NCBI GenBank assembly: GCA_947624505.1
Contig: CANQKO010000001.1
Coordinates: 8,948-72,947 of the forward strand
Source of the DNA: an uncultured Bacilli bacterium
GTDB taxonomy: Bacteria > Bacillota_I > Bacilli_A > RF39 > UBA660
DNA: 64,000 nt
Direction: 5' to 3'
Of the stretch, positions 1,803-16,878 are shown piece after piece. Made by a program: the position numbers and the translations under genes. The notes below the pieces were generated by a model. That model did no database searches. It had not been told where the DNA came from and saw only the letters and a list, made by a program, of their open reading frames with translations. Within the stretch, counting starts at the first letter, position 1. Every line of letters starts with the position of its first letter.

Positions 1803-3041
1803 ATGCATATTAAAACCCTTAATATTGAAGAATTTGAAAATTTTGAAAAAAATCATCCTTTAAGTAGTTTATATCAAACTGTTAACTATGGAATGCTTAA
1901 AGCAGAAATAGGATATGACTATGAACTTATTGGTTTATTAGATGAGGAAAATACCATTATCGCCGCCTCTTTAATCTTAATAAAAAGTATTGGAACTCAA
2001 AGTTATTATGGCTATGCTCCAAGAGGTTTCTTAATTGATTATCAAAATGATTATTTATTAGATATATTTACTAAAAAATTAAAAGAATATTACTTAAATA
2101 AAAGAGTTATCTTTATTAAAGTAAATCCTAATATCCCAATTGGGGAAGTTAATTTAAATAACTACTCTACTACTTATAATGATAATTATCAAATTAAAAA
2201 TAATTTAATAAATTATGATTTTAAAAAATTATTTGATAATTTATATTTTGAGGCTCAATTACCACGTTTTAATGCTTTCGTTAATTTGAAAAATTATGAT
2301 CCATCTAAATTAAATAAAAATACGAGAAATAAAATAAAAAAAGGAATACGTAAAGGTTTAGTCTTTGAAAAAGCTGAAAAAAATGACATTCAAATTTTTG
2401 AAAAGTTATTAAATAACAAAGATATTAAAGAATTTTATTATCAAGATTATTATACAGCTTTTGAAAAAAATAATGCAGTTGATTTATTTTTAATATCTAT
2501 AGATTATGATGAGTTTTTACAAAATAGTCAATATATTTATAATAAAGAATTAGAAAAAAACAATAAGTTAAATGAACGTTTAACAAGAAAAAATACCGAA
2601 CATAATATTAATGCTAAAATGGCTAGTGATAAAGCTTTATTATCTTATAAAAATGATATTATGGAAGCATCTAAAGGTTTAAGTGATAATCATAAAGTAT
2701 ATCTAGCGGGAGCCCTTGTTGTCAAACATAATAATATGGTAACTGTAGTTATGAATGCTTATGATAAAAACTATAAAAGATTTGCTCCTAACTATTTCTT
2801 ATATTATAACATTATTAAATATTATCAAGAAAAATATGAATTCCTTGATTTAAATGGTGTTGTTGGTGATTTTAAAAATAATAACCCTTATTCTGGTTTA
2901 AATAGATTTAAAATAGGTTTTAATCCAAGAATATTTGAATATATTGGTGAATATGATTTTATTATTAATCCCAAAATGTATGAAATATTAAATCATAATG
3001 GTTATTTAGCCAAAGAATTTAATAAAAAAACTGTTAGTTAA
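1803..3041 (+). CDS. FemAB-family peptidoglycan interpeptide-bridge aminoacyltransferase
   Basis: 412 aa. The length, a central coiled-coil insert (LEKNNKLNERLTRK...) and the C-terminal LNGVVGDF...GLNRFKIGFNP resemble FemX/FemA/MurM family proteins. Confidence 0.7.
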   Translation: MHIKTLNIEEFENFEKNHPLSSLYQTVNYGMLKAEIGYDYELIGLLDEENTIIAASLILIKSIGTQSYYGYAPRGFLIDYQNDYLLDIFTKKLKEYYLNKRVIFIKVNPNIPIGEVNLNNYSTTYNDNYQIKNNLINYDFKKLFDNLYFEAQLPRFNAFVNLKNYDPSKLNKNTRNKIKKGIRKGLVFEKAEKNDIQIFEKLLNNKDIKEFYYQDYYTAFEKNNAVDLFLISIDYDEFLQNSQYIYNKELEKNNKLNERLTRKNTEHNINAKMASDKALLSYKNDIMEASKGLSDNHKVYLAGALVVKHNNMVTVVMNAYDKNYKRFAPNYFLYYNIIKYYQEKYEFLDLNGVVGDFKNNNPYSGLNRFKIGFNPRIFEYIGEYDFIINPKMYEILNHNGYLAKEFNKKTVS

Positions 3042-3063
3042 ACTAACAATTTTTTTTATAAAA

Positions 3064-4791
3064 TTACATTTTATCAGGTACTTTTATAGCTAAAATATCG
3101 AGTAAAATATTATTTACTTTATAAACTATACTCGTTAAATATAACCAAGATACTTGTTTTAATTTATCTTTTTCATTTAAAATATAATTTTCTGTATAAA
3201 AACGATTATAACTTGTTGTTAAACGATATAAATATTCCGTAATATCATTTAAAGATTTACCATCAAAACATCTATTTAAAATAGTATCTAAATTATTTAA
3301 AATAATTAATAATTCCCGGTCATAATTATTAGCAATTTTATATATTTTATCATATGTAATATTATTTTCTTTAGCTTTATTTAAAAGCGATTTCATTCTA
3401 ATTGTTGAGTATAAAATATATGGTCCGGTTTTACCTTCTAAATCACAAAACTTTTCAACATCAAAATTGTAATCAGTGGCGATATTTGGTAACATATCAG
3501 CATATTTAATTGCGGACATTGCTATATCTTCAGCAATACTATCCCGATTATCTAAAATATTAGGATTTAATCTTTTTAGGCTTTCTTTTTTTACTTCTTC
3601 AAGTAAATCAAGTAAACGCATTACTCCCCCATCCCGAGTTTTAAAAGGTTTACCATCACTACCATTCATTGTTCCAAAACCTGCAAAGACGAGGTTTGTA
3701 TCTTTAGTTAAGCCACTTTTTTTAGAGGCTCTAAAAACTTGGGTAAAATGTAAGCTTTGTCTTTTATCAACAACATACCATATTTCATCAGGATGATATT
3801 CTTTGACTCTTTCATATATCGTCGCAAGTTCTGTAGTACTATAAAGGATACCCCCATCAGTTTTAATAAGTAACATTGGCGGTATTTCTAATTTATCACC
3901 ATCTTCTTTAACATCAATAACTTTAGCCCCTTCACTTTCATAAACAATATTCAATTTATCTAAATAACTAAGTAATTCTGGAACACAATTTTCGGCATCA
4001 CTTTCCCCTTTATATAAATCAAAATTTGTATTTAATCGATCATAAATTTCTTTAATACTTTTTTTAGAAACTTCCATTATTTTTAACCATAAATCATAAA
4101 TACCTTTTTCTTTATTTTGTAATCTCTTAGTCATTATTTGGGCTTCTTTTAAGTATTCTTCGCTTTCTTTAGCTTTAGCTGATGCATATGGATAAACTTC
4201 TTCTAACAGTTCATTAGTAATAACTACATTTTCACCTTCACCTTTGTAGTCTTCTTTAAAATAACTCCACTCAGGATATCTTTTACTAAGCTCTAAAATA
4301 ACAAGCCCTAAAGGACGGCCAAAATCACCCAAATGGGTATCTGATATTGTTTTATAGCCTAAATAATTACATAATCTTTTTAAAGCTTCCCCAATATTAG
4401 CACTTCTTAAATGACCAACGTGTAAGCTTTTAGCTACATTGGCACCACCATAATCTAAAAATATTAAATGATCATTTTTAGGATAAACATAATCATCAAT
4501 ATTAGCAAAGTTAATTAACGCATCATCACTAATGCTTAAATTAATAAATCCGGGACCAGCCACACTGACATCTTTAAAAAATGGATCTTTTTTTAAAACA
4601 TCAACAACTTCACTCGCAATTTCAATAGGATTTTTATGATAAACTTTTGCTAAAGGCATTATTCCATTAAATTGGTAATCGCCTAAATCTGGACGATTTG
4701 ATTCATTAACAACTACATCATCACATTTATAACCACACGCATCTAAAGAATTTTTTACTTTTTCTTCTAACAACTTATAAAATTTTTTCAT
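3064..4791 (-). CDS. argS: Arginine--tRNA ligase
   Basis: 575 aa. Has the class I HIGH-type motif AKSLHVGHLRS, an anticodon-binding C-terminal domain, and ends in the ArgRS-typical terminal Met. Confidence 0.92.
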   Translation of the reverse strand: MKKFYKLLEEKVKNSLDACGYKCDDVVVNESNRPDLGDYQFNGIMPLAKVYHKNPIEIASEVVDVLKKDPFFKDVSVAGPGFINLSISDDALINFANIDDYVYPKNDHLIFLDYGGANVAKSLHVGHLRSANIGEALKRLCNYLGYKTISDTHLGDFGRPLGLVILELSKRYPEWSYFKEDYKGEGENVVITNELLEEVYPYASAKAKESEEYLKEAQIMTKRLQNKEKGIYDLWLKIMEVSKKSIKEIYDRLNTNFDLYKGESDAENCVPELLSYLDKLNIVYESEGAKVIDVKEDGDKLEIPPMLLIKTDGGILYSTTELATIYERVKEYHPDEIWYVVDKRQSLHFTQVFRASKKSGLTKDTNLVFAGFGTMNGSDGKPFKTRDGGVMRLLDLLEEVKKESLKRLNPNILDNRDSIAEDIAMSAIKYADMLPNIATDYNFDVEKFCDLEGKTGPYILYSTIRMKSLLNKAKENNITYDKIYKIANNYDRELLIILNNLDTILNRCFDGKSLNDITEYLYRLTTSYNRFYTENYILNEKDKLKQVSWLYLTSIVYKVNNILLDILAIKVPDKM

Positions 4792-8104: not shown

Positions 8105-8998
8105 ATGCCAGCATTATATACTCATTATACATTCGGACAAAATGTATTAAATAAAGTAAATAAAAATTTACAAAAAGAAATAAAAGAAAATATTGATTAC
8201 TATAATATGTTTAATCAAGGTTTTGATAATTTATATTATTATCATTTTAAATGGCAATATTATCGTGACTTTGGTATTCGTTGTCATAAAAAGAAAATAG
8301 ATTTATTCTTTACTAATGCCATTAATTATATTAAAGAAAATAATTTACAAGACAATTCTATTTGCACTAATATGATTTATGGTATTATTAATCATTATAC
8401 TTTAGATACAATTATTCATCCCTTTATTAATTCCCAAGTTGATAATTTAAATATACCCCACACTAAAATAGAATTCATTATTGATTCTTATTTATATAAA
8501 TATATTTCTAATGATAAGTGGCATAATAGTCTTTATAAGACTCTTATTCCTAAATTAAAATTTAATAATGATTTAATTAATTTATTAGATTATACTTTTT
8601 TAAATACTCATAATGAAGAACATATTGGTAAAATATTTAATAGATCTCATAATAACGGCTATTATATTTATCGTTATTTTATTAATGATTATTATGGTAT
8701 TAAAACTAAAATATATAAAATTGTTGATTTTGTTTTAAGAAGAGATGATAACTTCTTTAGTAATGCTACTTTTAGAATTAAAGAATCTAATGATGAAATA
8801 TTAAATATGAACAAAAATACTTGGCACCATCCTAATAACAAAGAAAAAACATATAATTATTCTTTAGAAGAATTATATATTTTTTCTTTAAAAAAAGCTA
8901 TTAAGCTTAATAATTTAGCTTATAAAGTAATTCATAATAAAGAAGACATCAATAAATTAATTAATGAAATAAAACAAATTAATCTTGATAATATTTAA
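8105..8998 (+). CDS. Zinc-dependent phospholipase C-like family protein (tentative)
   Basis: The N-terminal MPALYTHYTFGQ and several His-containing segments (INHYTLDTIIHP) resemble the family annotated as zinc dependent phospholipase C. No signal peptide. Confidence 0.45.
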   Translation: MPALYTHYTFGQNVLNKVNKNLQKEIKENIDYYNMFNQGFDNLYYYHFKWQYYRDFGIRCHKKKIDLFFTNAINYIKENNLQDNSICTNMIYGIINHYTLDTIIHPFINSQVDNLNIPHTKIEFIIDSYLYKYISNDKWHNSLYKTLIPKLKFNNDLINLLDYTFLNTHNEEHIGKIFNRSHNNGYYIYRYFINDYYGIKTKIYKIVDFVLRRDDNFFSNATFRIKESNDEILNMNKNTWHHPNNKEKTYNYSLEELYIFSLKKAIKLNNLAYKVIHNKEDINKLINEIKQINLDNI

Positions 8999-9821
8999 TT
9001 AATTTATTTTTTTCTTTTTCTAATTCTTTAAGACTTTTCTTTGGGGTTGGTAAATCTTCTGGCATTGTTCCTCCTAATCTTTCAATTGTATTACGTACTT
9101 CTTTTCCTACTTCATAATGAGCTTCGTTAGCACCACTTTCATTTTTAATGTTTTCCCTTTTTAACTTTGATTCTGTTTGGACAATTCTAAATAAATTGGC
9201 TGCTAGTTCTTCACTTCCCATATTATCCAAAATATCTTCTCGATATCTTAAACCTTTTCTTTTGGCTATATCATCTGCTGTTTCACCATTATATAATCCT
9301 CTATAACCTGCATTATGAAATTGATCAAAGTTTTTTACTCCCGCATTCCTTGCAGCAATATTTAATGAATAATTACCTTTTCTAGTTAAATTCCTTTGAT
9401 AAAATCTTTTTTCATCTTCTGTTAATTTACCATACTCTTTTTCATTTATTTCTTGCTTTCTTGTTTGGACAGCAAAATATGTTTGGGCTAATGCAATAAC
9501 TTCTTTTCTCGAATCACCATTTTGAGCAATTAAATAACAAGCATATCTTGATAATTTATAATCATTTTGTTTTCTCTTCGCACCAGAACCTATTTTTACC
9601 ATTTTGCCGGTGCCGGCAAAATGGTCAACAATATTATCATTACTTAACTTGCAAGCGTTTTTTGCTTTATCAATAACACCTAGAAAATTACTCCATTTGG
9701 AGTATTCAAGCGCTATCATTAACTCCCGAGCAAACCAGTATTCATTACCATACCTATCAACATGTTTAATATTTTCAAAAGTTGTATTAGTATTTTCCAT
9801 TTTTATAATTTCTTCGTTCAT
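8979..9821 (-). CDS. dinD: DNA damage-inducible protein D homologue
   Basis: FENIKHVDRYGNEYWFARELMIALEYSKWSNF...DHFAGTGKMVKIGSGAKR...DYKLSRYACYLIAQNGD...AQTYFAVQTRKQE is the typical DinD pattern. Confidence 0.8.
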   Translation of the reverse strand: MNEEIIKMENTNTTFENIKHVDRYGNEYWFARELMIALEYSKWSNFLGVIDKAKNACKLSNDNIVDHFAGTGKMVKIGSGAKRKQNDYKLSRYACYLIAQNGDSRKEVIALAQTYFAVQTRKQEINEKEYGKLTEDEKRFYQRNLTRKGNYSLNIAARNAGVKNFDQFHNAGYRGLYNGETADDIAKRKGLRYREDILDNMGSEELAANLFRIVQTESKLKRENIKNESGANEAHYEVGKEVRNTIERLGGTMPEDLPTPKKSLKELEKEKNKLIKYYQD

Positions 9822-9851
9822 TTTCTTTTCCCCCTTACTTGAACCATTATC

Positions 9852-9880
9852 ATTTTATCATTAAAACGTATGTTTGTAAA
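9852..9880 (-). promoter_or_regulatory. Sigma-A-type promoter of dinD with an embedded AAAC-N4-GTTT palindrome
   Basis: On the minus strand: TTTACA (9880-9875), a 17-nt spacer, then TAAAAT (9857-9852). The spacer contains AAACATACGTTT (9864-9875). Confidence 0.45.
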
Positions 9881-9908
9881 CGCTTTTTGATAAAATTTTT
9901 TATTTTTT

Positions 9909-9941
9909 AAAAACGTTTTGCTAATCTTGGCAAAACGTTTT
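9909..9941 (-). terminator. Terminator of cwlD
   Basis: A perfect 11-bp stem, aaacgttttgc / gcaaaacgttt, with an 8-nt loop. It starts at the cwlD stop codon and is followed by a T-rich tract on the minus strand. Confidence 0.65.
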
Positions 9942-10590
9942 ACCCTTGATAATACTTAGCAACTCCTAAAGCAATTGTATCAGCAACCTTTTTTTGATAC
10001 TCCGCAGTTTTAAGTAATTCTCTTTCTCTTCCATTAGATAAAAATCCACACTCAATTAATACACCCTTTATATTTAATTTATTATACATATATGTATCAC
10101 TAGGTATTTTTTTTACTTCTCTATCTCCTTTTAATCTTTCATTCATAACTGCTTGAATTACTTTAGCTAATTCTTCATTTTCTTTATTAAAAAATACTTG
10201 TGGTCCATAATAACTACCATTACTTAAATAATTTAAATGAATACTCAAATATATATCTGAATTACTTTCATTAATCATTTTAATTCGATTATCAAAATCA
10301 CTTTTCTTTCTATATGTTGCATTTGGAGTTGATAAATCATAGTCGCCATTTCTTGTTAATATAACACTAGCTCCTAGTTTACTTAAACTTTTTTCCAAAT
10401 ATAAACTAATACTTAAATTAATATCTTTTTCATATATTTTGCCATAACTAGTTCCTGGGTCTTCTAAACCGTGACCTGGATCTATTATTATAGTTTTACC
10501 TGTAAGAGGTAATACCGCTCTTACCTTAAAGCCATATAATATTATTACACAAATAAAAAAGATAAAAAATACTCTAAACATTCTTTTCAT
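9940..10590 (-). CDS. cwlD: N-acetylmuramoyl-L-alanine amidase, CwlD-like (Amidase_3)
   Basis: Signal/TM N-terminus, then IIIDPGHGLEDPGT, SIHLN and LIECGFLSN, which are the Amidase_3 zinc-ligand contexts. The size is typical of germination-specific CwlD. Confidence 0.8.
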   Translation of the reverse strand: MKRMFRVFFIFFICVIILYGFKVRAVLPLTGKTIIIDPGHGLEDPGTSYGKIYEKDINLSISLYLEKSLSKLGASVILTRNGDYDLSTPNATYRKKSDFDNRIKMINESNSDIYLSIHLNYLSNGSYYGPQVFFNKENEELAKVIQAVMNERLKGDREVKKIPSDTYMYNKLNIKGVLIECGFLSNGRERELLKTAEYQKKVADTIALGVAKYYQG

Positions 10591-10721: not shown

Positions 10722-12560
10722 TTAATGTTTTAGTAATGCTTCTTTATAGCATACAAGATTACTTGTTCCACTTCCAGAAAATTCCTTCCATCCAGATTCA
10801 CAGTTATATAACGTTTCATTATAATTTTCTACACTTCCGAGCTGTCCCGTTCCAACGCATCCACTTTCACACTGATTTAAACTAGAATAATCTTCGCCGA
10901 GAACGTCACACCAAAACTTAGTTTCTTCAACCGCGGGAGTGGAGGATTTGCAGAAGACTTCACATGAAGATTTTTTATCGTACAAATCAGTTAGCAAAGA
11001 ACACTTCCACCACGTTTGGTAGCCGGACAACTCACACAAACCCTTCGTCACACATTTCGTTCCGCTCACTTCGCCACCTTGAGGACAACTATAAGACGCG
11101 ACCTGAGAGCAAGTTCCTTTTTTCTCACCTGTGCAAGCCTCTCTTGCTAGTGCTTCTGATTCATATTTTTTTGAAGTATCAACACTACAAGTCCAACGGG
11201 TTACTAATGAAGATTTACCATTGCTTTTACAAATCCATCCCTTCTGCTCATCAAAAACTAAATCTCCACCAACATTGTCACAAGTATATCCAAATTGGGT
11301 GGTAACTTTTACATTTGGATAAATCGTATTCCATCTTCCTGATGCATCTCTTACTCTTCCCTCTATTGTATATTCTGTTCCATCTTTTAATTTTGTTCCA
11401 TCATCTAAACTATTTATTGTACAGTCTCCATTTGTACCTGTATCTTTCCAAGTACTTTGATTATTTATTTTACATTGTCTTCCTATTAATGCTTCTGTTC
11501 CTGTATATCCTACTGTTACTGTTATACTTTCGGTATCGTGTGTTTTTTCACTTATTGTGGCTGTTGGATTTGTTTTATCTAAGGTTATTTTCTTACTTAT
11601 ACTTGCTTCATTTCCTGCCTTATCTTTTACCTTTATTATAACTGTCTTCTCTCCTTCTGTATCACTTAAAGTAAATGCAGTATTTGTAAATGTTTTTGTT
11701 GTAGAACTTACTAAGTTACAAGATGTCTCCCCTATACAATTACTTTCCATATTTGCTTCGGTTATACTTGCTGTATATGTTATATTCTTGGTATGTGTAT
11801 ATGTTTCACTATTACTTAATGTTTGTCCTGTTTCATTTGTTCCTTTTAAGGCAAGTGTTACACTTGGTATTGTCCTATCTACTGTTATTGATTTTGTTTG
11901 AACTGCTGATATATTACCTGCTTTATCTTTGATATATACACTTACATTTTTACTAACACCATTACTACTTGTATATGTATTATTACTTACTGATATTGTT
12001 TTAACACTTTTATCTGTTAATTCTATCCAGTTACTACAACTTGTTGTATCATTTATACAATAACTTACTACATCACTATCTTGCCAATCTATTTTATATG
12101 TTACTGTATTGTTATATGTAAAACCATTTGTTAAGTTTTGATTACCACTTGTTTTTCCGATTATTGTATAATTACTTATACTTGGTTTATCATCTTTATC
12201 AAAATATAAATCACAATAGATTGTTTTATTACTATTTACTGTTATTAAACCATTTATACTTCCTTTTGTTAATTCTTGAGTTACAGGTATTGGTGTAATA
12301 TTTTGATCATTATAACTTTTACATACAGACTTTGTTGTATTAAGTAAATATCCACTTGTTGGAAATGTTGTATCACTTACTGATACATAATCTTTCTTTC
12401 CTGTAGTTTGTTCTTTATATATATTAAATTCTTTTCTTTCTACTTTTATTAATTTACTTTTTTCTATTATATTATTATCTTTCTTTAATACTAAAAATAT
12501 GTTTAATACTATTAATAATATTATTGTTATAATAATTATTACTCTTTTATTCTTTTTCAT
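10722..12560 (-). CDS. Membrane-anchored extracellular protein with Ig-like repeats and a Cys-rich C-terminal domain
   Basis: N-terminal TM helix (VIIIITIILLIVLNIFLVL). Repeated KDKAGN...D(R/K)T.P segments are typical of bacterial Ig-like repeats. The last ~190 aa carry 16 Cys. Confidence 0.75.
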   Translation of the reverse strand: MKKNKRVIIIITIILLIVLNIFLVLKKDNNIIEKSKLIKVERKEFNIYKEQTTGKKDYVSVSDTTFPTSGYLLNTTKSVCKSYNDQNITPIPVTQELTKGSINGLITVNSNKTIYCDLYFDKDDKPSISNYTIIGKTSGNQNLTNGFTYNNTVTYKIDWQDSDVVSYCINDTTSCSNWIELTDKSVKTISVSNNTYTSSNGVSKNVSVYIKDKAGNISAVQTKSITVDRTIPSVTLALKGTNETGQTLSNSETYTHTKNITYTASITEANMESNCIGETSCNLVSSTTKTFTNTAFTLSDTEGEKTVIIKVKDKAGNEASISKKITLDKTNPTATISEKTHDTESITVTVGYTGTEALIGRQCKINNQSTWKDTGTNGDCTINSLDDGTKLKDGTEYTIEGRVRDASGRWNTIYPNVKVTTQFGYTCDNVGGDLVFDEQKGWICKSNGKSSLVTRWTCSVDTSKKYESEALAREACTGEKKGTCSQVASYSCPQGGEVSGTKCVTKGLCELSGYQTWWKCSLLTDLYDKKSSCEVFCKSSTPAVEETKFWCDVLGEDYSSLNQCESGCVGTGQLGSVENYNETLYNCESGWKEFSGSGTSNLVCYKEALLKH

Positions 12561-12688: not shown

Positions 12689-12919
12689 ATGAATATAAAT
12701 AGATTAAAAGAAATAAGAGAAGATAAAGATTTATTACAAAAAGATGTTGCTAAACATTTAAATATTAAGCAACAACAATACTCAGAATATGAAATAGGTA
12801 AAAGGTTAATTCCTATAAATTATTTAAGTGAACTAGCAGATTTTTATAATGTATCTATAGATTATTTATTAAGTAAAACAGACGAAAGAAAACCTTATCC
12901 TAAAAGTAAGATAAGGTAA
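12689..12919 (+). CDS. XRE-family helix-turn-helix transcriptional regulator
   Basis: 76 aa. LKEIREDKDLLQKDVAKHLNIKQQQYSEYEIGKRLIPINYLSELADFYNVSIDYLL is a classic Cro/C1 HTH. Confidence 0.85.
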   Translation: MNINRLKEIREDKDLLQKDVAKHLNIKQQQYSEYEIGKRLIPINYLSELADFYNVSIDYLLSKTDERKPYPKSKIR

Positions 12920-12920
12920 A

Positions 12921-13409
12921 TTATTTTTCTTTGTTGATAACTTTAAAGTTATCAACAATTTTATCAAAAGATATTGCACAATTAGCGGGACTAGTAGAAT
13001 ATAAATAAGTTGCGACAACTTTAGTAGAGGGATAAATATATTTATTATATAAATCATAAGATTTTTTACCTAAAGTATAAATATATTTTATGTTAGTTTC
13101 TTTTAATAATTTATTAATATTATTTACTTTAATATTTTTAATTGATGAATCAGATGATTTATCTATTTCACAAGATTTAATGGTATCCCATAAAGCTATT
13201 TTATGTTTTAATAAAAATTCTTTTTTAGCTTCAATTGTATTATCTTTTATTGTATCATTAAAAACACATTCTAAAATAGGCCAAAATCTATTTTGAGGAT
13301 GCATATAGTAAAAACCTTTTTCTCTTGAAACAATTGATGGCATACTTCCTAAAATAAGTATTTCACTATCAGAATTATAATATGGTTTAATTGGATGTAT
13401 TACTTTCAT
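12921..13409 (-). CDS. DNA-deoxyinosine (hypoxanthine) glycosylase, UDG superfamily
   Basis: ILILGSMPS...REKGFYYMHPQNRFWPIL matches the deoxyinosine glycosylase (family-6-like UDG) N-terminal signature. The 162-aa size also fits. Confidence 0.7.
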   Translation of the reverse strand: MKVIHPIKPYYNSDSEILILGSMPSIVSREKGFYYMHPQNRFWPILECVFNDTIKDNTIEAKKEFLLKHKIALWDTIKSCEIDKSSDSSIKNIKVNNINKLLKETNIKYIYTLGKKSYDLYNKYIYPSTKVVATYLYSTSPANCAISFDKIVDNFKVINKEK

Positions 13410-13425
13410 AATCTTATTATAACCT

Positions 13426-14145
13426 CTATTTAAGATAATTATTTAATCTTTCTATATAAGTATCAGGAATAATACCTTTTATAATGGGATTTTTAGATAC
13501 AAAGAATATAAATTCTTCATTTTTAGTTGCTATTATTTTAGTAAATATATTATCTAAATTTAAGTATTCACTAACTAAAGAAATAAGTTCACAAATATAA
13601 TAACTATCTCTTATTTTTATATAATAATTAGCAATCTTTTCTAAATCAATTTTATTCTCATACTTATTAGCTAAATTCCATAACTCTTCTTTATTATCTT
13701 CTTTAATATAATTATCTATTAATTTATTAAGATATTTATTAAAACTTTTATATTCTTTAATAGATGATGGCCAATTTGGTTTAAAATTTTTTAAATAATC
13801 TAAAAGAAGATCAGCAAACTTTTCTATATTAGGATCATCTACAATTGTATTTAAATATTTATGAACACCTTTTTTTGTATTAACATAATTAATATAAAAT
13901 GCTAAGAGATTAGAATTGCCAACTTTTTCTTTAGCAAGTGATACAATTGATTCTAAACATTCTCTTGTACAACTATAACGTGGTTTAAAAGGGCTAGCAC
14001 TAGTAAACATAATATAAACACAACCAATAAATAATTTATCTGTCCCATCACTTGGAAAAGTTTTCTTAGCAAATTCTATAACACTATCTAAATTACCACT
14101 GTTCTCATAATCATCATATAATTCCATTAAAATTCTATTTATCAT
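13426..14145 (-). CDS. Hypothetical protein, helical, no recognisable motif
   Basis: 239-aa ORF. It starts 15 nt after the methylase stop, and its own stop lies 16 nt before the glycosylase start. Confidence 0.6.
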   Translation of the reverse strand: MINRILMELYDDYENSGNLDSVIEFAKKTFPSDGTDKLFIGCVYIMFTSASPFKPRYSCTRECLESIVSLAKEKVGNSNLLAFYINYVNTKKGVHKYLNTIVDDPNIEKFADLLLDYLKNFKPNWPSSIKEYKSFNKYLNKLIDNYIKEDNKEELWNLANKYENKIDLEKIANYYIKIRDSYYICELISLVSEYLNLDNIFTKIIATKNEEFIFFVSKNPIIKGIIPDTYIERLNNYLK

Positions 14146-14160
14146 TTTTTAAATCTCTCT

Positions 14161-15192
14161 TTATTTTTCTAAACAATGAATATATTCTATAGTATATTTT
14201 TTAGAATACTTTCTTTTGGTATCTGCTTTATATCTTCGATGATTCTTTTCATAACATTTGTAATGACCATATTTAGACATTACTTTTTTTATATCTTCAA
14301 TAGATATTATTCCTTCATCATTATAACTTAATAATATATATTTAAAATTGGCATTTTTTATTAAATCTTCTAAAGCATTTAAAGCATCTTTTTTAATGCA
14401 ATATTTACTTTTTTTATTTTCTTCTACTCTTACCCCTGCTTTTCCTTTTATTAAAGGATTATCATATAAAGCAATAGTTTCTAACATATGATAATTAGTA
14501 TCATACTTTCTCGTATTATATGGTGGATCTAAATATAAAATATCCCCTTTTATTTCTTTTATTAAAACATTTGCATCTTTATTATAAGCTTTAAAAGTTT
14601 TATTAGGATAAATATTAATATCTAAAGGTTTTAATTCCATTTTTTTACTTGCTGATCCTTTTAATTTTTTTAAAAATGCTTCATAAACTGACGCTGTATT
14701 GGCTACTTTATCCGCGGCTTCAATTAAAGAAGCAATTAAATAATCATATTCTTTACTATTTATTTTATTTAAGTTTTTCCACTCTTCAATTTTAAGTCTA
14801 ATAGCATCTATTTTTAAAGCATTTTCATCAGAAAAAAATTGTCTAACTATTTCCTTGTCCTTAGTTCCCCCATTAGCATAGTTATTATAAATAAATCCTT
14901 CAACACCCTTTAAATTATTTAAATAAGAAAATGGTTCAATACCATCTTTTTTTAATTCTAAAAATGTTAATTCTTCATTATTTTCAATAATTGCTTTAGC
15001 AGTTATATAACTAAAATATAAAATATCATTAGATATAATATTATAACCTTTTCTTTTAAAATATTTACCTACTATATTTGTACCTGAAAAGATATCACAA
15101 AATATAATATTTTTTTTCTTTAGTTTACAAAAGTCATCTACTACATAATCAATATAATCTAATATTGAATACTTTGACCCGATATAATTCAT
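14161..15192 (-). CDS. D12-class N6-adenine DNA methyltransferase
   Basis: N-terminal MNYIGSKY, SAM-binding DIFSGT, and the catalytic YLDPPYN followed by RKYDTNYHMLE. Confidence 0.85.
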   Translation of the reverse strand: MNYIGSKYSILDYIDYVVDDFCKLKKKNIIFCDIFSGTNIVGKYFKRKGYNIISNDILYFSYITAKAIIENNEELTFLELKKDGIEPFSYLNNLKGVEGFIYNNYANGGTKDKEIVRQFFSDENALKIDAIRLKIEEWKNLNKINSKEYDYLIASLIEAADKVANTASVYEAFLKKLKGSASKKMELKPLDINIYPNKTFKAYNKDANVLIKEIKGDILYLDPPYNTRKYDTNYHMLETIALYDNPLIKGKAGVRVEENKKSKYCIKKDALNALEDLIKNANFKYILLSYNDEGIISIEDIKKVMSKYGHYKCYEKNHRRYKADTKRKYSKKYTIEYIHCLEK

Positions 15193-15246
15193 CTATATAT
15201 CACCTTATTAATTGTATCATGTTTTAAATAATTAAGCATTTATAAT

Positions 15247-16350
15247 TTATTTTTCTTCCCTAAATATTAATTTATCATCTTCTAATTTAAAAGAAATATA
15301 TCTTGTTTTAGACACAATATCATTATCAATATTTAAGTTAATTGATTTTATTTTTTCTTTTACTCTATCAGTTGGAGCTGGGGCCACAATAGTAGGATGA
15401 ATTAAAACCTTACCTTTAATATTAGGAACAACATATTGGCATAGCCACCACACATATTTTTGTAACTGTTCTTTTATATCAACATTAATTTGGACGCTTT
15501 TTAATTCACAAACTACAATATGCGTTGTTAAATCCTCTTTTTGAAAAAAGACAACATCGATACTTTGCATCCCCACACCACAAGACATTTCATTGCCAAT
15601 CCAACTTATACTTTTATCAACTACTTTTAAAGGGGCTATTTCTTCTAAATGTTGCATTAAATAAGCTTGTAAATGAACTTCATAAGCATTCTTCTTTTGA
15701 TATTTATATTTTAATCTATTAAAAATATCTAACTTTTTTATCTCTCCTAAATAATTATAGGATTGCTTACTTTTAATTATTTTATAATTTTTACTATCAT
15801 AAGCTAAATAATTGGCATCCAATTTTTGACTTTTATTCTTTTTTCTAATTTTATTCATTATAAATTCATATTCATAATCCGTTATCATTGTACAACCACG
15901 ATTAGCGCGTAATTTACGATAAATTAAACTCCAACATAATTCATAAGGTTTATTTATACCTTCTAAACTATCCAAACAATCTCTTTCCGTAATACCATTT
16001 TCATATACTTCATAGGGATTTATTTTAACTCGAAAAGGAAGTTTTTTATGTAATTCCTTTTGTAAATAATCATCACTTGCTAAAAAGGGTGTATCACTGA
16101 CAATAAAAGATCCAAAAAACAAACCATCGGTATCACCATATTTTTGTAAATAAAAAAGTATTTTATCGCCTTTTCTAATTCTAGAGATATCCGCTACCAT
16201 CTCGGTTAACATTTTTTCAACTATACCATAAATTAAAGCATTATTATCCCATAAGTAATTACAATTATATTCTTTAGCACCTGTACCAGCAAATAAATAT
16301 TTTAAATGAATATCAAAAGTTTTCTCATCAACAATAAAAACGTGAGCCAA
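15247..16350 (-). CDS. Putative restriction endonuclease with a NucS/DUF91-like PD-(D/E)xK C-terminal domain and an uncharacterised, possibly PUA/EVE-like, N-domain
   Basis: The C-terminal half EVHLQAYLMQHLEEI...GNEMS...SIDVVFF...HIVVCELKSV...QLQKYVWWL follows the NucS-type nuclease pattern (D265, E282, K284 by my count). The N-domain has an RKGDKILFY motif. The gene lies directly upstream of the methylase. Confidence 0.6.
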   Translation of the reverse strand: MAHVFIVDEKTFDIHLKYLFAGTGAKEYNCNYLWDNNALIYGIVEKMLTEMVADISRIRKGDKILFYLQKYGDTDGLFFGSFIVSDTPFLASDDYLQKELHKKLPFRVKINPYEVYENGITERDCLDSLEGINKPYELCWSLIYRKLRANRGCTMITDYEYEFIMNKIRKKNKSQKLDANYLAYDSKNYKIIKSKQSYNYLGEIKKLDIFNRLKYKYQKKNAYEVHLQAYLMQHLEEIAPLKVVDKSISWIGNEMSCGVGMQSIDVVFFQKEDLTTHIVVCELKSVQINVDIKEQLQKYVWWLCQYVVPNIKGKVLIHPTIVAPAPTDRVKEKIKSINLNIDNDIVSKTRYISFKLEDDKLIFREEK

Positions 16351-16413
16351 TTAAAACACCTCTTTTTATATATTCTATAACTAATTATTTTTAATTGCAA
16401 TATTTTCTAATAT

Positions 16414-16443
16414 CAAAAAAAGCCCGAATATATCGAACTTTTT
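16414..16443 (-). terminator. Probable terminator after rpsI
   Basis: The minus-strand RNA reads AGUUCG-auauauu-CGGGCU (6-bp stem including two G-U pairs), followed by UUUUUUU. Confidence 0.5.
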
Positions 16444-16458
16444 AAATATTGTATAATA

Positions 16459-16878
16459 TTAACGTTTACTAAATTGTGGAGCACGACGGGCTTTCTTTAA
16501 ACCATATTTTTTACGTTCTTTAACTCTTGGATCTCTTGTAACAAATCCAGCTGTTTTTAAAATATGTCTATAACTATCTTCTCTTGTTTGATCAGTTGTA
16601 CTATCAAAATCAAGTAATGCTCTAGTTATAGCAAGTCTAATGGCACCAGTTTGGCCATCAAATCCACCACCATTAACTTTTACAGTAATATCAAATCTGT
16701 TTTCATTATTAGTAGCTACTAAAGGTTGTTTTAAATCCATTACTAATGTAGATGATGGCATATATTCATCAACATCTCTACCATTAACAGTAATTTTTCC
16801 TGTTCCACCAACTAATTTAACTTGAGCAACAGCACTTTTTCTTCTACCTGTTGCAGTCCATACTTGTTTATTTGCCAT
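16459..16878 (-). CDS. rpsI: 30S ribosomal protein S9
   Basis: 139 aa. [10 protein letters not shown]...[19 protein letters not shown]...[25 protein letters not shown]. Confidence 0.97.

Follow-up and report, generated by a model that had tools for sequence, protein, structure and literature searches.

A predicted reduced CATG restriction-modification cassette with an EVE-like/PD-(D/E)xK nuclease beside a resident deoxyinosine glycosylase gene in an uncultured Bacilli bacterium

Does close packing of co-directional genes mark a functional unit? This question is raised by four genes on the minus strand of a 64,000-nucleotide stretch of DNA from an uncultured Bacilli bacterium (RF39, UBA660; assembly GCA_947624505.1, contig CANQKO010000001.1, positions 8,948 to 72,947), which we term the window. 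Open reading frame (ORF) 1 encodes a nuclease (NUC), ORF2 an N6-adenine DNA methylase, ORF3 a protein of all-alpha type, and ORF4 a DNA glycosylase. The four genes are separated by gaps of 54, 15, and 16 nt, and a consensus scan found no terminator hairpin between them, in agreement with a preliminary description of the locus, whose sequence motifs were likewise all found (GNEMS, SIDVVFF, VVCELKSV, QLQKYVWWL, RKGDKILFY, YIGSKY, DPPYN, ILILGSMPS, and GFYYMHPQNRFW). That description had proposed a composite four-gene defence module and, as a fallback, a restriction-modification (R-M) system. In our analysis, the best explanation is that ORF1 and ORF2 form a reduced CATG R-M cassette beside a resident ORF4, with ORF1 as a second, independent restriction endonuclease (REase) that would cut DNA lacking the methyl mark. 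We consider this explanation to be rather probable.

The history of the window copy can be read from a sister species (locus L001), in which ORF1 is 83% identical and the gene order is NUC-IceA-D12-ORF3-UDG, where D12 is the class of the ORF2 methylase and UDG denotes the ORF4 glycosylase of the uracil-DNA glycosylase superfamily. As the L001 locus starts inside rpsI, it represents the same chromosomal site as the window. In a blastn comparison, positions 1-1283 of L001 align with 16534-15251 of the window, and positions 1932-4316 with 15247-12860. Between these two matches, L001 alone carries a 648-bp IceA gene, which places the deletion junction of the window at 15247-15251. A tblastn search of the whole 64 kb detected no trace of IceA, and a search with hidden Markov models (HMMs) showed that the window locus also lacks the second methylase and the controller protein (C-protein) of related cassettes. 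ORF1-ORF2 would then derive, in reduced form, from a CATG-specific R-M cassette that is widespread and moves horizontally; IceA appears to have been cleanly deleted from this copy. This loss of the conventional cassette REase (IceA/NlaIII type) had been overlooked in the preliminary description. ORF1 of the window is full length and keeps all family-invariant residues; at least three independent contigs of the species carry it with 99% identity. Nucleotide identity between L001 and window positions 12860-16534 amounts to 85% over rpsI-ORF1 and 95% over ORF2-ORF3-ORF4. Since the switch coincides with the IceA deletion junction, recombination or mosaicism at this point is suggested.

A scan of species-representative genomes with ORF1, in which the neighbouring ORFs were clustered and the loci searched with the cluster HMMs, yielded 80 ORF1-anchored loci. 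They belong to at least seven phyla and span Bacilli, Clostridia, Patescibacteria, Bacteroidota, Melainabacteria, Deferribacterota, and Proteobacteria. ORF2 matches PF02086 at 5e-44 and PADLOC MTase_II at 1e-104, which bears out its assignment as a D12 N6-adenine methylase, and its close homologues (E 1e-87 to 1e-164) adjoin ORF1 homologues in 69 of the 80 loci. Two further genes recur in 59 of the 80 loci each. One encodes a PF05315 ICEA protein of ~204 aa (IceA1/NlaIII-type HNH REase, E 6e-70), the other a second amino-methyltransferase of ~262 aa ("bM"; PF01555, PADLOC MTase_II at 5e-103), which is publicly mislabelled as "TRM11 family", the name of an RNA methylase. A methylase of either kind adjoins the ORF1 homologue in 73 of 75 informative loci, a count that takes in L007, added by hand; the fallback reading of the locus as an R-M system thereby gains support. 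Further, a small helix-turn-helix (HTH) protein resembling R-M controllers (PADLOC Control_protein, 5e-21) stands at the head of the nuclease operon in 31 loci, and D12, IceA, bM, and the ORF1-type nuclease are found all together in 48. The full cassette, as reconstructed from these loci, would consist of one operon running from the C-protein via the IceA/NlaIII-type HNH REase to the ORF1-type nuclease, together with the D12 N6-methyladenine (m6A) methylase and the ~262-aa amino-methylase. The median spacing of IceA and ORF1-type genes is 1 nt or, with their order reversed, -1 nt; in 42 of 50 pairs it is ≤10 nt, so that the two genes are predicted to be translationally coupled. The spacing is equally tight towards the methylase genes, with 1 nt from D12 to NUC and an overlap of 4 nt between bM and NUC.

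The ORF1-type nuclease is the only recognised nuclease in 21 loci, all of which keep the E-D-ExK-Q-Y residues, and NUC plus D12 without the other cassette parts also occurs in L049, L159, and L161. Eight loci with a compact bM>NUC>D12> operon form a deep clade, with pairwise identities of 34-85% and no other nuclease. Held between two methylase genes across such deep divergence, the nuclease shows the behaviour of an R-M restriction gene. The partner of ORF1 homologues is always the methylase subfamily of ORF2, never another R-M type. This subfamily also partners PF05315 IceA REases and pairs interchangeably with IceA, ORF1-type, c6, or REII12 nucleases, for which reason we liken the latter to isoschizomer R genes. 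Here, c6 stands for a putative nuclease of 206 aa that has no family match and a D..D-x-K-like motif (L003, L013, L021, L028, L059, L165, L168, and L171), and REII12 for a putative nuclease of ~240 aa that is PADLOC REase_II-like (L030, L037, L044, L061, L115, L143, L155, and L160). Both add to or replace IceA in what looks like a "one methylase, many nucleases" pattern. A GIY-YIG/DUF4357 protein (PADLOC candidate PDC-S14, 3e-109) is repeatedly joined to the cassette methylase operon downstream of D12 (L022, L026, L073, L090, L098, L103, and L134).

Serine recombinases lie beside several cassette copies, and one contig in IMG/VR carries a complete cassette next to a serine recombinase. Pseudogenised cassette components are common (L005, L018, L024, L063, L065, L068, and L077). 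Gut Firmicutes, Lachnospira among them, commonly carry the two-nuclease, two-methylase CATG cassette; carrier strains include [Lactobacillus] rogosae CLA-AA-H255 and Peptoniphilus hominis CLA-SR-H025. In the cassette of [Lactobacillus] rogosae / Lachnospira pectinoschiza (L020), IceA, the second methylase, and D12 have sequences that recur unchanged on at least 1,000 public contigs, making the cassette very common in human-gut metagenomes.

In contrast to the methylase, neither ORF3 nor ORF4 is co-conserved with ORF1. Both are absent from 78 of the 80 ORF1-anchored loci and from all 80 D12-anchored metagenome loci. The four-gene block is found only in the window species (L085-L087) and in L001, which is not an independent occurrence because it is the orthologous chromosomal site; the block predicted for independent genomes was thus not encountered. 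ORF4 scores 124.2 bits against TIGR04274 (cut-off 80), an equivalog-level match that upholds its earlier identification as a deoxyinosine glycosylase of the UDG superfamily, and matches no PADLOC v2 family at E≤0.1. Its orthologues in Bacilli metagenome-assembled genomes form a graded, vertical-looking identity series from 98 down to 60%. In three of these relatives, the order rplM-rpsI-[variable gene(s)]-glycosylase is present and no R-M system lies there. The slot holds a 144-aa ORF in L091 (glycosylase 80% identical), RelB/YafQ toxin-antitoxin pairs in L092 (72%), and an HD-domain protein in L093 (68%). Since the glycosylase keeps its place after rplM-rpsI while the intervening genes differ, the rpsI-glycosylase interval appears to be a variable slot that took in the cassette. 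ORF4 itself is a resident chromosomal repair gene and an ordinary TIGR04274 member. L002 and L065 likewise have an ORF1-type cassette immediately behind rplM-rpsI. In L002 (9831-11899), a 236-aa protein and an Abi_2 abortive-infection protein (PF07751 at 9e-43) come after the ORF1-IceA pair, so that the region behind rpsI may be a small defence island.

ORF3, described earlier as lacking any motif, indeed has no family match. Searches of Pfam, NCBIfam, PHROGs, and PDB sequences returned nothing, and PADLOC matches were at chance level only. The AlphaFold2 (AF2) model (pLDDT 89) is all-alpha, and the structure search proposed in the preliminary description gave no significant structural neighbour (best Foldseek E 0.017). 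The N-terminal ~145 aa belong to a Bacilli/Erysipelotrichales-restricted family of 288 homologues, mostly of ~146 aa and in varied non-R-M contexts, while the C-terminal ~95 aa are TPR-like and occur in the closest relatives only. ORF3 is thus predicted to be a neighbour rather than a conserved part of the R-M cassette. Three other assignments were rejected: a hidden REase or enzyme, ruled out by the lack of database matches and the all-helical TPR-like model; a fusion with the 131-aa gene that follows the ORF3 homologue in L081, to which it has no similarity; and a regular association of ORF3-family genes with UDG genes, as the contexts vary.

CATG is the recognition sequence of the IceA/NlaIII enzymes (PF05315). 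In the window, it occurs 18 times versus 124.8 expected (observed/expected ratio (O/E) 0.14, z -9.6), a ~7-fold depletion and the strongest among the 16 four-base palindromes. The flanks of ORF1 loci have a median O/E of 0.40 for CATG versus 0.82 for GTAC, and related Bacilli loci without the cassette show CATG ratios of 0.71-1.07. CATG is probably the target of the cassette; ORF2 is predicted to resemble M.NlaIII/M.HpyI and to modify the adenine of this site. GATC (O/E 0.70) and TGCA (O/E 0.74) are also low in the window, and the under-representation of CATG, GATC, and TGCA hints that the lineage has long been under restriction pressure. The sole CATG between 12.6 and 16.6 kb, at 15218, overlaps an extended -10-like TGATACAAT just upstream of ORF2. 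Because this element, read by eye, sits in the 54-nt ORF1-ORF2 spacer, a promoter of its own is predicted for ORF2 onwards and probably present. The CATG at 15218 could allow methylation-sensitive autoregulation of this promoter. ORF3 and ORF4 may be co-transcribed with ORF1-ORF2 by read-through, yet stand outside the R-M system.

ORF1 is composed of an N-terminal EVE-like domain (PUA superfamily, ~165 aa), a helical linker, and a C-terminal PD-(D/E)xK nuclease. In the AF2 model (36 homologues, pLDDT 88.7), the N-domain folds into an EVE-type pseudo-barrel. Foldseek matched it to PH1033 (2hd9, 1wmm) at E 2.5e-6 with TMt 0.69-0.75, as well as to further EVE and YTH structures (2eve, THYN1 5j3e, and YTHDF2), and the ORF1 family profile matches the PH1033 sequence at 6.5e-5. 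At the sequence level, the EVE family PF01878 gives 14 bits on ORF1 (cut-off 23) and does not reach the Pfam threshold, while E≤0.01 is reached by 10 of the 36 family members (best 6.2e-6); NF002008 matches at 2.4e-6, far under its cut-off. ORF1 is accordingly placed in the EVE fold class by its modelled structure, not by Pfam threshold, which agrees with the earlier guess of an EVE-like N-domain. The C-domain had been called "NucS-type". Its PD-(D/E)xK core stands, whereas the NucS family models remain below threshold on ORF1 (NucS_C, 16.5 bits vs cut-off 24; NF003270, 23 vs 216 bits). As NucS_C is found in only one of the 36 family members, we soften the label to PD-(D/E)xK. E254, D265, E282-x-K284, Q295, and Y299 occur without exception in all 98 full-length homologues examined and constitute the putative active site. 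By fold, the C-domain resembles the Cap4 nuclease and AF1548 (Foldseek).

More than 2,100 ORF1 homologues are present in the protein collection, with public labels of "hypothetical" or "DUF91". ORF1 has no PADLOC v2 family at E≤0.1, no PHROGs or PDB sequence match, and no tblastn match among plasmids and phages in PLSDB or INPHARED. A BFVD fold search for a chlorovirus R.CviAII-like relative returned generic EVE or PD-(D/E)xK matches alone. UpaP162, a Ureaplasma CATG enzyme (PMC6191088), was considered as a possible relative; its methylase is of a different class. The searchable literature on EVE, NucS, or DUF91 with restriction, on NlaIII/iceA, and on FatI/CviAII, with REBASE outside the search, holds no account of the ORF1 family or of a two-nuclease, two-methylase CATG cassette. 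The window feature is a reduced member of a so far undescribed cassette variant. The preliminary description had named, as the outcome that would speak for an ordinary R-M pair next to a repair gene, a characterised REase with its usual methylase and ORF3 and glycosylase genes not conserved with them. The usual methylase partner and the missing co-conservation of ORF3 and ORF4 were found; ORF1, in contrast, falls in no characterised REase family.

How might such a nuclease act together with ORF2? In the explanation that we favour, ORF2 would methylate the adenine of CATG, and ORF1 would cleave DNA without the CATG mark as a second, independent REase. The EVE-like pocket of ORF1 would probably inspect the flipped target base, and N6-methylation would block productive binding or cleavage. 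ORF1 and ORF2 would then still constitute a working two-gene R-M system. We lean, by a little, towards ORF1 being a methylation-blocked restriction enzyme of this kind, a reading backed by the C-protein control and by the coupling of ORF1 homologues to a bona fide REase or to methylases. A more far-reaching proposal is that the family represents a new kind of REase, in which the EVE domain works "in reverse": it would check that the CATG adenine is unmethylated and license the PD-(D/E)xK domain. The family would act with its methylase(s) and no other nuclease, or it would supply the second nuclease, translationally coupled to the first, in a CATG cassette that has two nucleases and two methylases and is controlled by a C-protein. 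For this proposal as a whole, we see slightly less than an even chance.

Several observations weigh against a methylation-blocked REase within a self-contained R-M pair. The characterised EVE, SRA, and YTH nuclease fusions are all modification-dependent (PMC6765204, PMC7641849, PMC12707154), and by this analogy a methylation-blocked use of the ORF1 reader domain appears to be without precedent. Two loci have no nearby methylase, one with an ORF1 homologue (L007) and one with ORF1 plus IceA (L002), where methylases may still lie elsewhere in the metagenome-assembled genome, and only 25 of the 80 D12-anchored metagenome loci contain an ORF1-type nuclease. The CATG specificity is deduced indirectly, from the association with IceA and from motif avoidance. 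In 10 loci with ORF1 as the only nuclease, CATG depletion in the flanks is weaker (O/E 0 to 0.94, mostly 0.44-0.94), and the avoidance in the window may stem from the action of IceA until this enzyme was recently lost. Finally, ORF3 goes with the ORF1-ORF2 pair in two species, so that a local functional link is possible.

Part of this evidence would fit an ORF1 that is a modification-dependent, Type IV-like nuclease complementing a CATG Type II system. IceA would cut unmodified CATG and the EVE-nuclease base-modified phage DNA (5mC, 5hmC, or dense m6A), and the window would retain an orphan methylase plus a Type IV enzyme. Besides the uniform modification dependence of the known fusions, the match of the ORF1 fold to 5mC-DNA-bound THYN1 and to YTH m6A readers argues for it, as do the weaker CATG avoidance where ORF1 is the only nuclease and the optional nature of ORF1 in the D12-anchored set, in which IceA and bM alone account for 7 of the 30 well-flanked loci. 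However, a Type IV enzyme needs no methylase, yet nearly all informative ORF1 loci have one and solo copies are almost absent. Moreover, the partner is invariably one methylase subfamily and no other R-M type; methylase genes flank the nuclease on both sides in a compact operon that diversified long ago and contains no other nuclease; and ORF1 homologues are placed under C-protein control like a toxic REase. A DNA methylase lies within 3 kb of fewer than 6% of PUA-nuclease fusions (PMC6765204), and the tight methylase linkage of the ORF1 family sets it apart from such ordinary modification-dependent enzymes. We regard a Type IV-like ORF1 as unlikely, though worth keeping in view.

The m6A-reading potential of a YTH/EVE-like fold is also compatible with ORF1 as an accessory nuclease, either a MutH-like nickase for hemimethylated sites or a processor of IceA-made breaks that is kept off self DNA by the mark. 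Its obligate linkage to an m6A methylase, its translational coupling to IceA, and the resemblance of the nuclease domain to NucS point in this direction. Against this stands that the ORF1 type persists and diversifies as the only nuclease with methylases, that the NucS_C similarity is sub-threshold, and that its spread across phyla, by way of mobile cassettes bearing serine recombinases, is more in keeping with selfish or defence genes than with host repair, which renders such a role quite improbable. Decay of the window copy into a non-functional remnant, i.e., an orphan methylase and a nuclease gene no longer active or expressed, would agree with the clean deletion of IceA, the absence of C-protein and bM, and the frequent pseudogenes in related loci. 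We hold it to be improbable all the same, as ORF1 is full length with every family-invariant residue, nearly unchanged (99%) among at least three independent contigs of the species, and equipped with a ribosome binding site (RBS) and a promoter-like site, and as loci with NUC and D12 only recur (L049, L159, L161). The composite four-gene module, in which nuclease and glycosylase would attack foreign, modified, or deaminated DNA with ORF3 as an adaptor and methylation marking self, draws on the co-directional arrangement with its short gaps and no internal terminator, and on the same gene order in L001 and in three further contigs of the window species. The orthology of the L001 site, the absence of ORF3 and ORF4 from 78 of 80 ORF1 loci and all 80 D12-anchored loci, the vertical-looking glycosylase after rplM-rpsI in relatives without R-M, and the lack of an enzymatic fold in ORF3 and of PADLOC matches for ORF3 and ORF4 all contradict it. 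By synteny, the module appears largely refuted, and we rate it as very improbable.

The coordinates of the gene string and its flanking signals are compiled below.

Table. Features of the four-gene string and its boundaries in the window (positions of the 64-kb stretch)
Feature	Position	Strand	Remarks
ORF1-unit upstream boundary	16372..16443	-	rpsI terminator-like hairpin 16443-16417, then promoter-like TTGCAA-17-TAGAAT 16400-16372; consensus scan
ORF1 (NUC)	15247..16350	-	367 aa; TTG start, RBS AGAGGTG
ORF1-ORF2 spacer	15193..15246	-	54 nt; IceA deletion junction, extended -10-like TGATACAAT, CATG at 15218
ORF2, D12-class N6-adenine DNA methyltransferase	14161..15192	-	343 aa
ORF3, all-alpha protein	13426..14145	-	239 aa
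ORF4, DNA-deoxyinosine (hypoxanthine) glycosylase, UDG superfamily	12921..13409	-	162 aa
Terminator-like hairpin directly after ORF4	12892..12917	-	Consensus scan; end of the co-directional gene string
HTH_3 protein, convergent	12689..12919	+	76 aa; PF01381 at 4.7e-14

The convergent HTH gene was considered as the C-protein of the cassette and rejected, since its HMM match is only at the generic HTH_3 level and its position and orientation are wrong. A related HTH gene follows the glycosylase in L093, and the gene in the window is probably a resident neighbour of the glycosylase. At 10722-12560 (minus strand) lies a gene for a 612-aa Ig-like (Big_13/Big_3_2) secreted protein. Its counterparts in contigs L085-L087 are only 56-87% identical, against 97-100% for the genes around them, a pattern that resembles that of hypervariable surface proteins. 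Further downstream of the string, 8979-10590 (minus strand) encodes two proteins, one with a Bro-N domain (280 aa) and one resembling N-acetylmuramoyl-L-alanine amidase (216 aa). Because the amidase directly follows the glycosylase in L091, the HTH and Ig-like genes may be additional insertions in the window.

In the window, a mobile R-M insertion can be told apart from resident repair genes, and tight co-directional spacing is consequently not evidence of a functional module. The ORF1 family, with its more than 2,100 proteins in at least seven phyla, is a reader-domain nuclease almost always tied to one methylase subfamily, while in current reviews PUA/EVE nuclease fusions figure solely as modification-dependent enzymes that act independently of a methylase. 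If ORF1 is methylation-blocked, reader domains would have a second use in self/non-self discrimination, and a new family of CATG-specific enzymes would become available for biotechnology. If it is modification-dependent instead, the cassette would represent a hard-wired combination of Type II and Type IV activities under one controller protein. The wide distribution of the cassette in abundant gut bacteria also bears on their genetic tractability, for which CATG-free or pre-methylated vectors come into consideration.

Close to the cassette among known systems are the Type IIP systems NlaIII and HpyI (iceA1-hpyIM), which recognise CATG and pair a PF05315 HNH REase with an m6A methylase of the D12 class, to which ORF2 also belongs. 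REases of this family occur in 59 of the 80 related cassettes and at the sister-species locus, and the host strongly avoids CATG. A controller protein in the cassette and the convergent or co-directional layout of R and M genes are shared with Type II systems. In the window, the D12 methylase and the CATG avoidance of the NlaIII/HpyI kind are both found, whereas the defining PF05315 REase is missing because IceA is absent. In addition, the cassette contains a non-homologous EVE-PD-(D/E)xK nuclease and usually a second methylase. To our knowledge, the classical NlaIII and HpyI systems contain neither of the two. We think it fairly probable that ORF1-ORF2 derives from a CATG cassette of the NlaIII/HpyI type and operates as Type II R-M systems do.

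A pairing of methylases like that of the full cassette is known from DpnII, MboI, and LlaDCHI, in which a D12-class enzyme (DpnM) is combined with an N6_N4-class enzyme (DpnA), just as D12 and the ~262-aa amino-methylase are combined beside the nuclease gene(s). In contrast to these systems, the predicted target is CATG and not GATC, two (sometimes three) unrelated nucleases are present, and the window lacks the second methylase. With the PUA-superfamily reader-nucleases VcaM4I/TspA15I (EVE-HNH), TagI/ScoA3IV (SRA-HNH), and MspJI/AspBHI (SRA-like plus PD-(D/E)xK), all of them modification-dependent (Type IV/IIM), ORF1 shares an N-terminal beta-barrel of the base-flipping reader type followed by a C-terminal nuclease; MspJI itself gives weak whole-chain structural matches only. 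Unlike these enzymes, fewer than 6% of which lie near a DNA methylase (PMC6765204), ORF1 homologues almost always lie next to one methylase subfamily, often within the methylase operon and under C-protein control, and ORF1 has no detectable similarity to any PADLOC REase model. Compared with Type IV systems, ORF1 is thus a reader-nuclease fusion that does not stand alone. ORF1 further resembles NucS/EndoMS (PF01939, NF003270) in its D...ExK...Q...Y core and in the combination of an N-domain handling flipped bases with a RecB-like nuclease. It differs from NucS/EndoMS in the EVE-like nature of the N-domain, in its sub-threshold family scores, and in its mobile R-M context instead of one of replication or repair. 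ORF4, in contrast, equals the housekeeping base-excision repair enzymes of TIGR04274 in score and in conserved chromosomal position, and only its chance adjacency to an R-M insertion is unusual.

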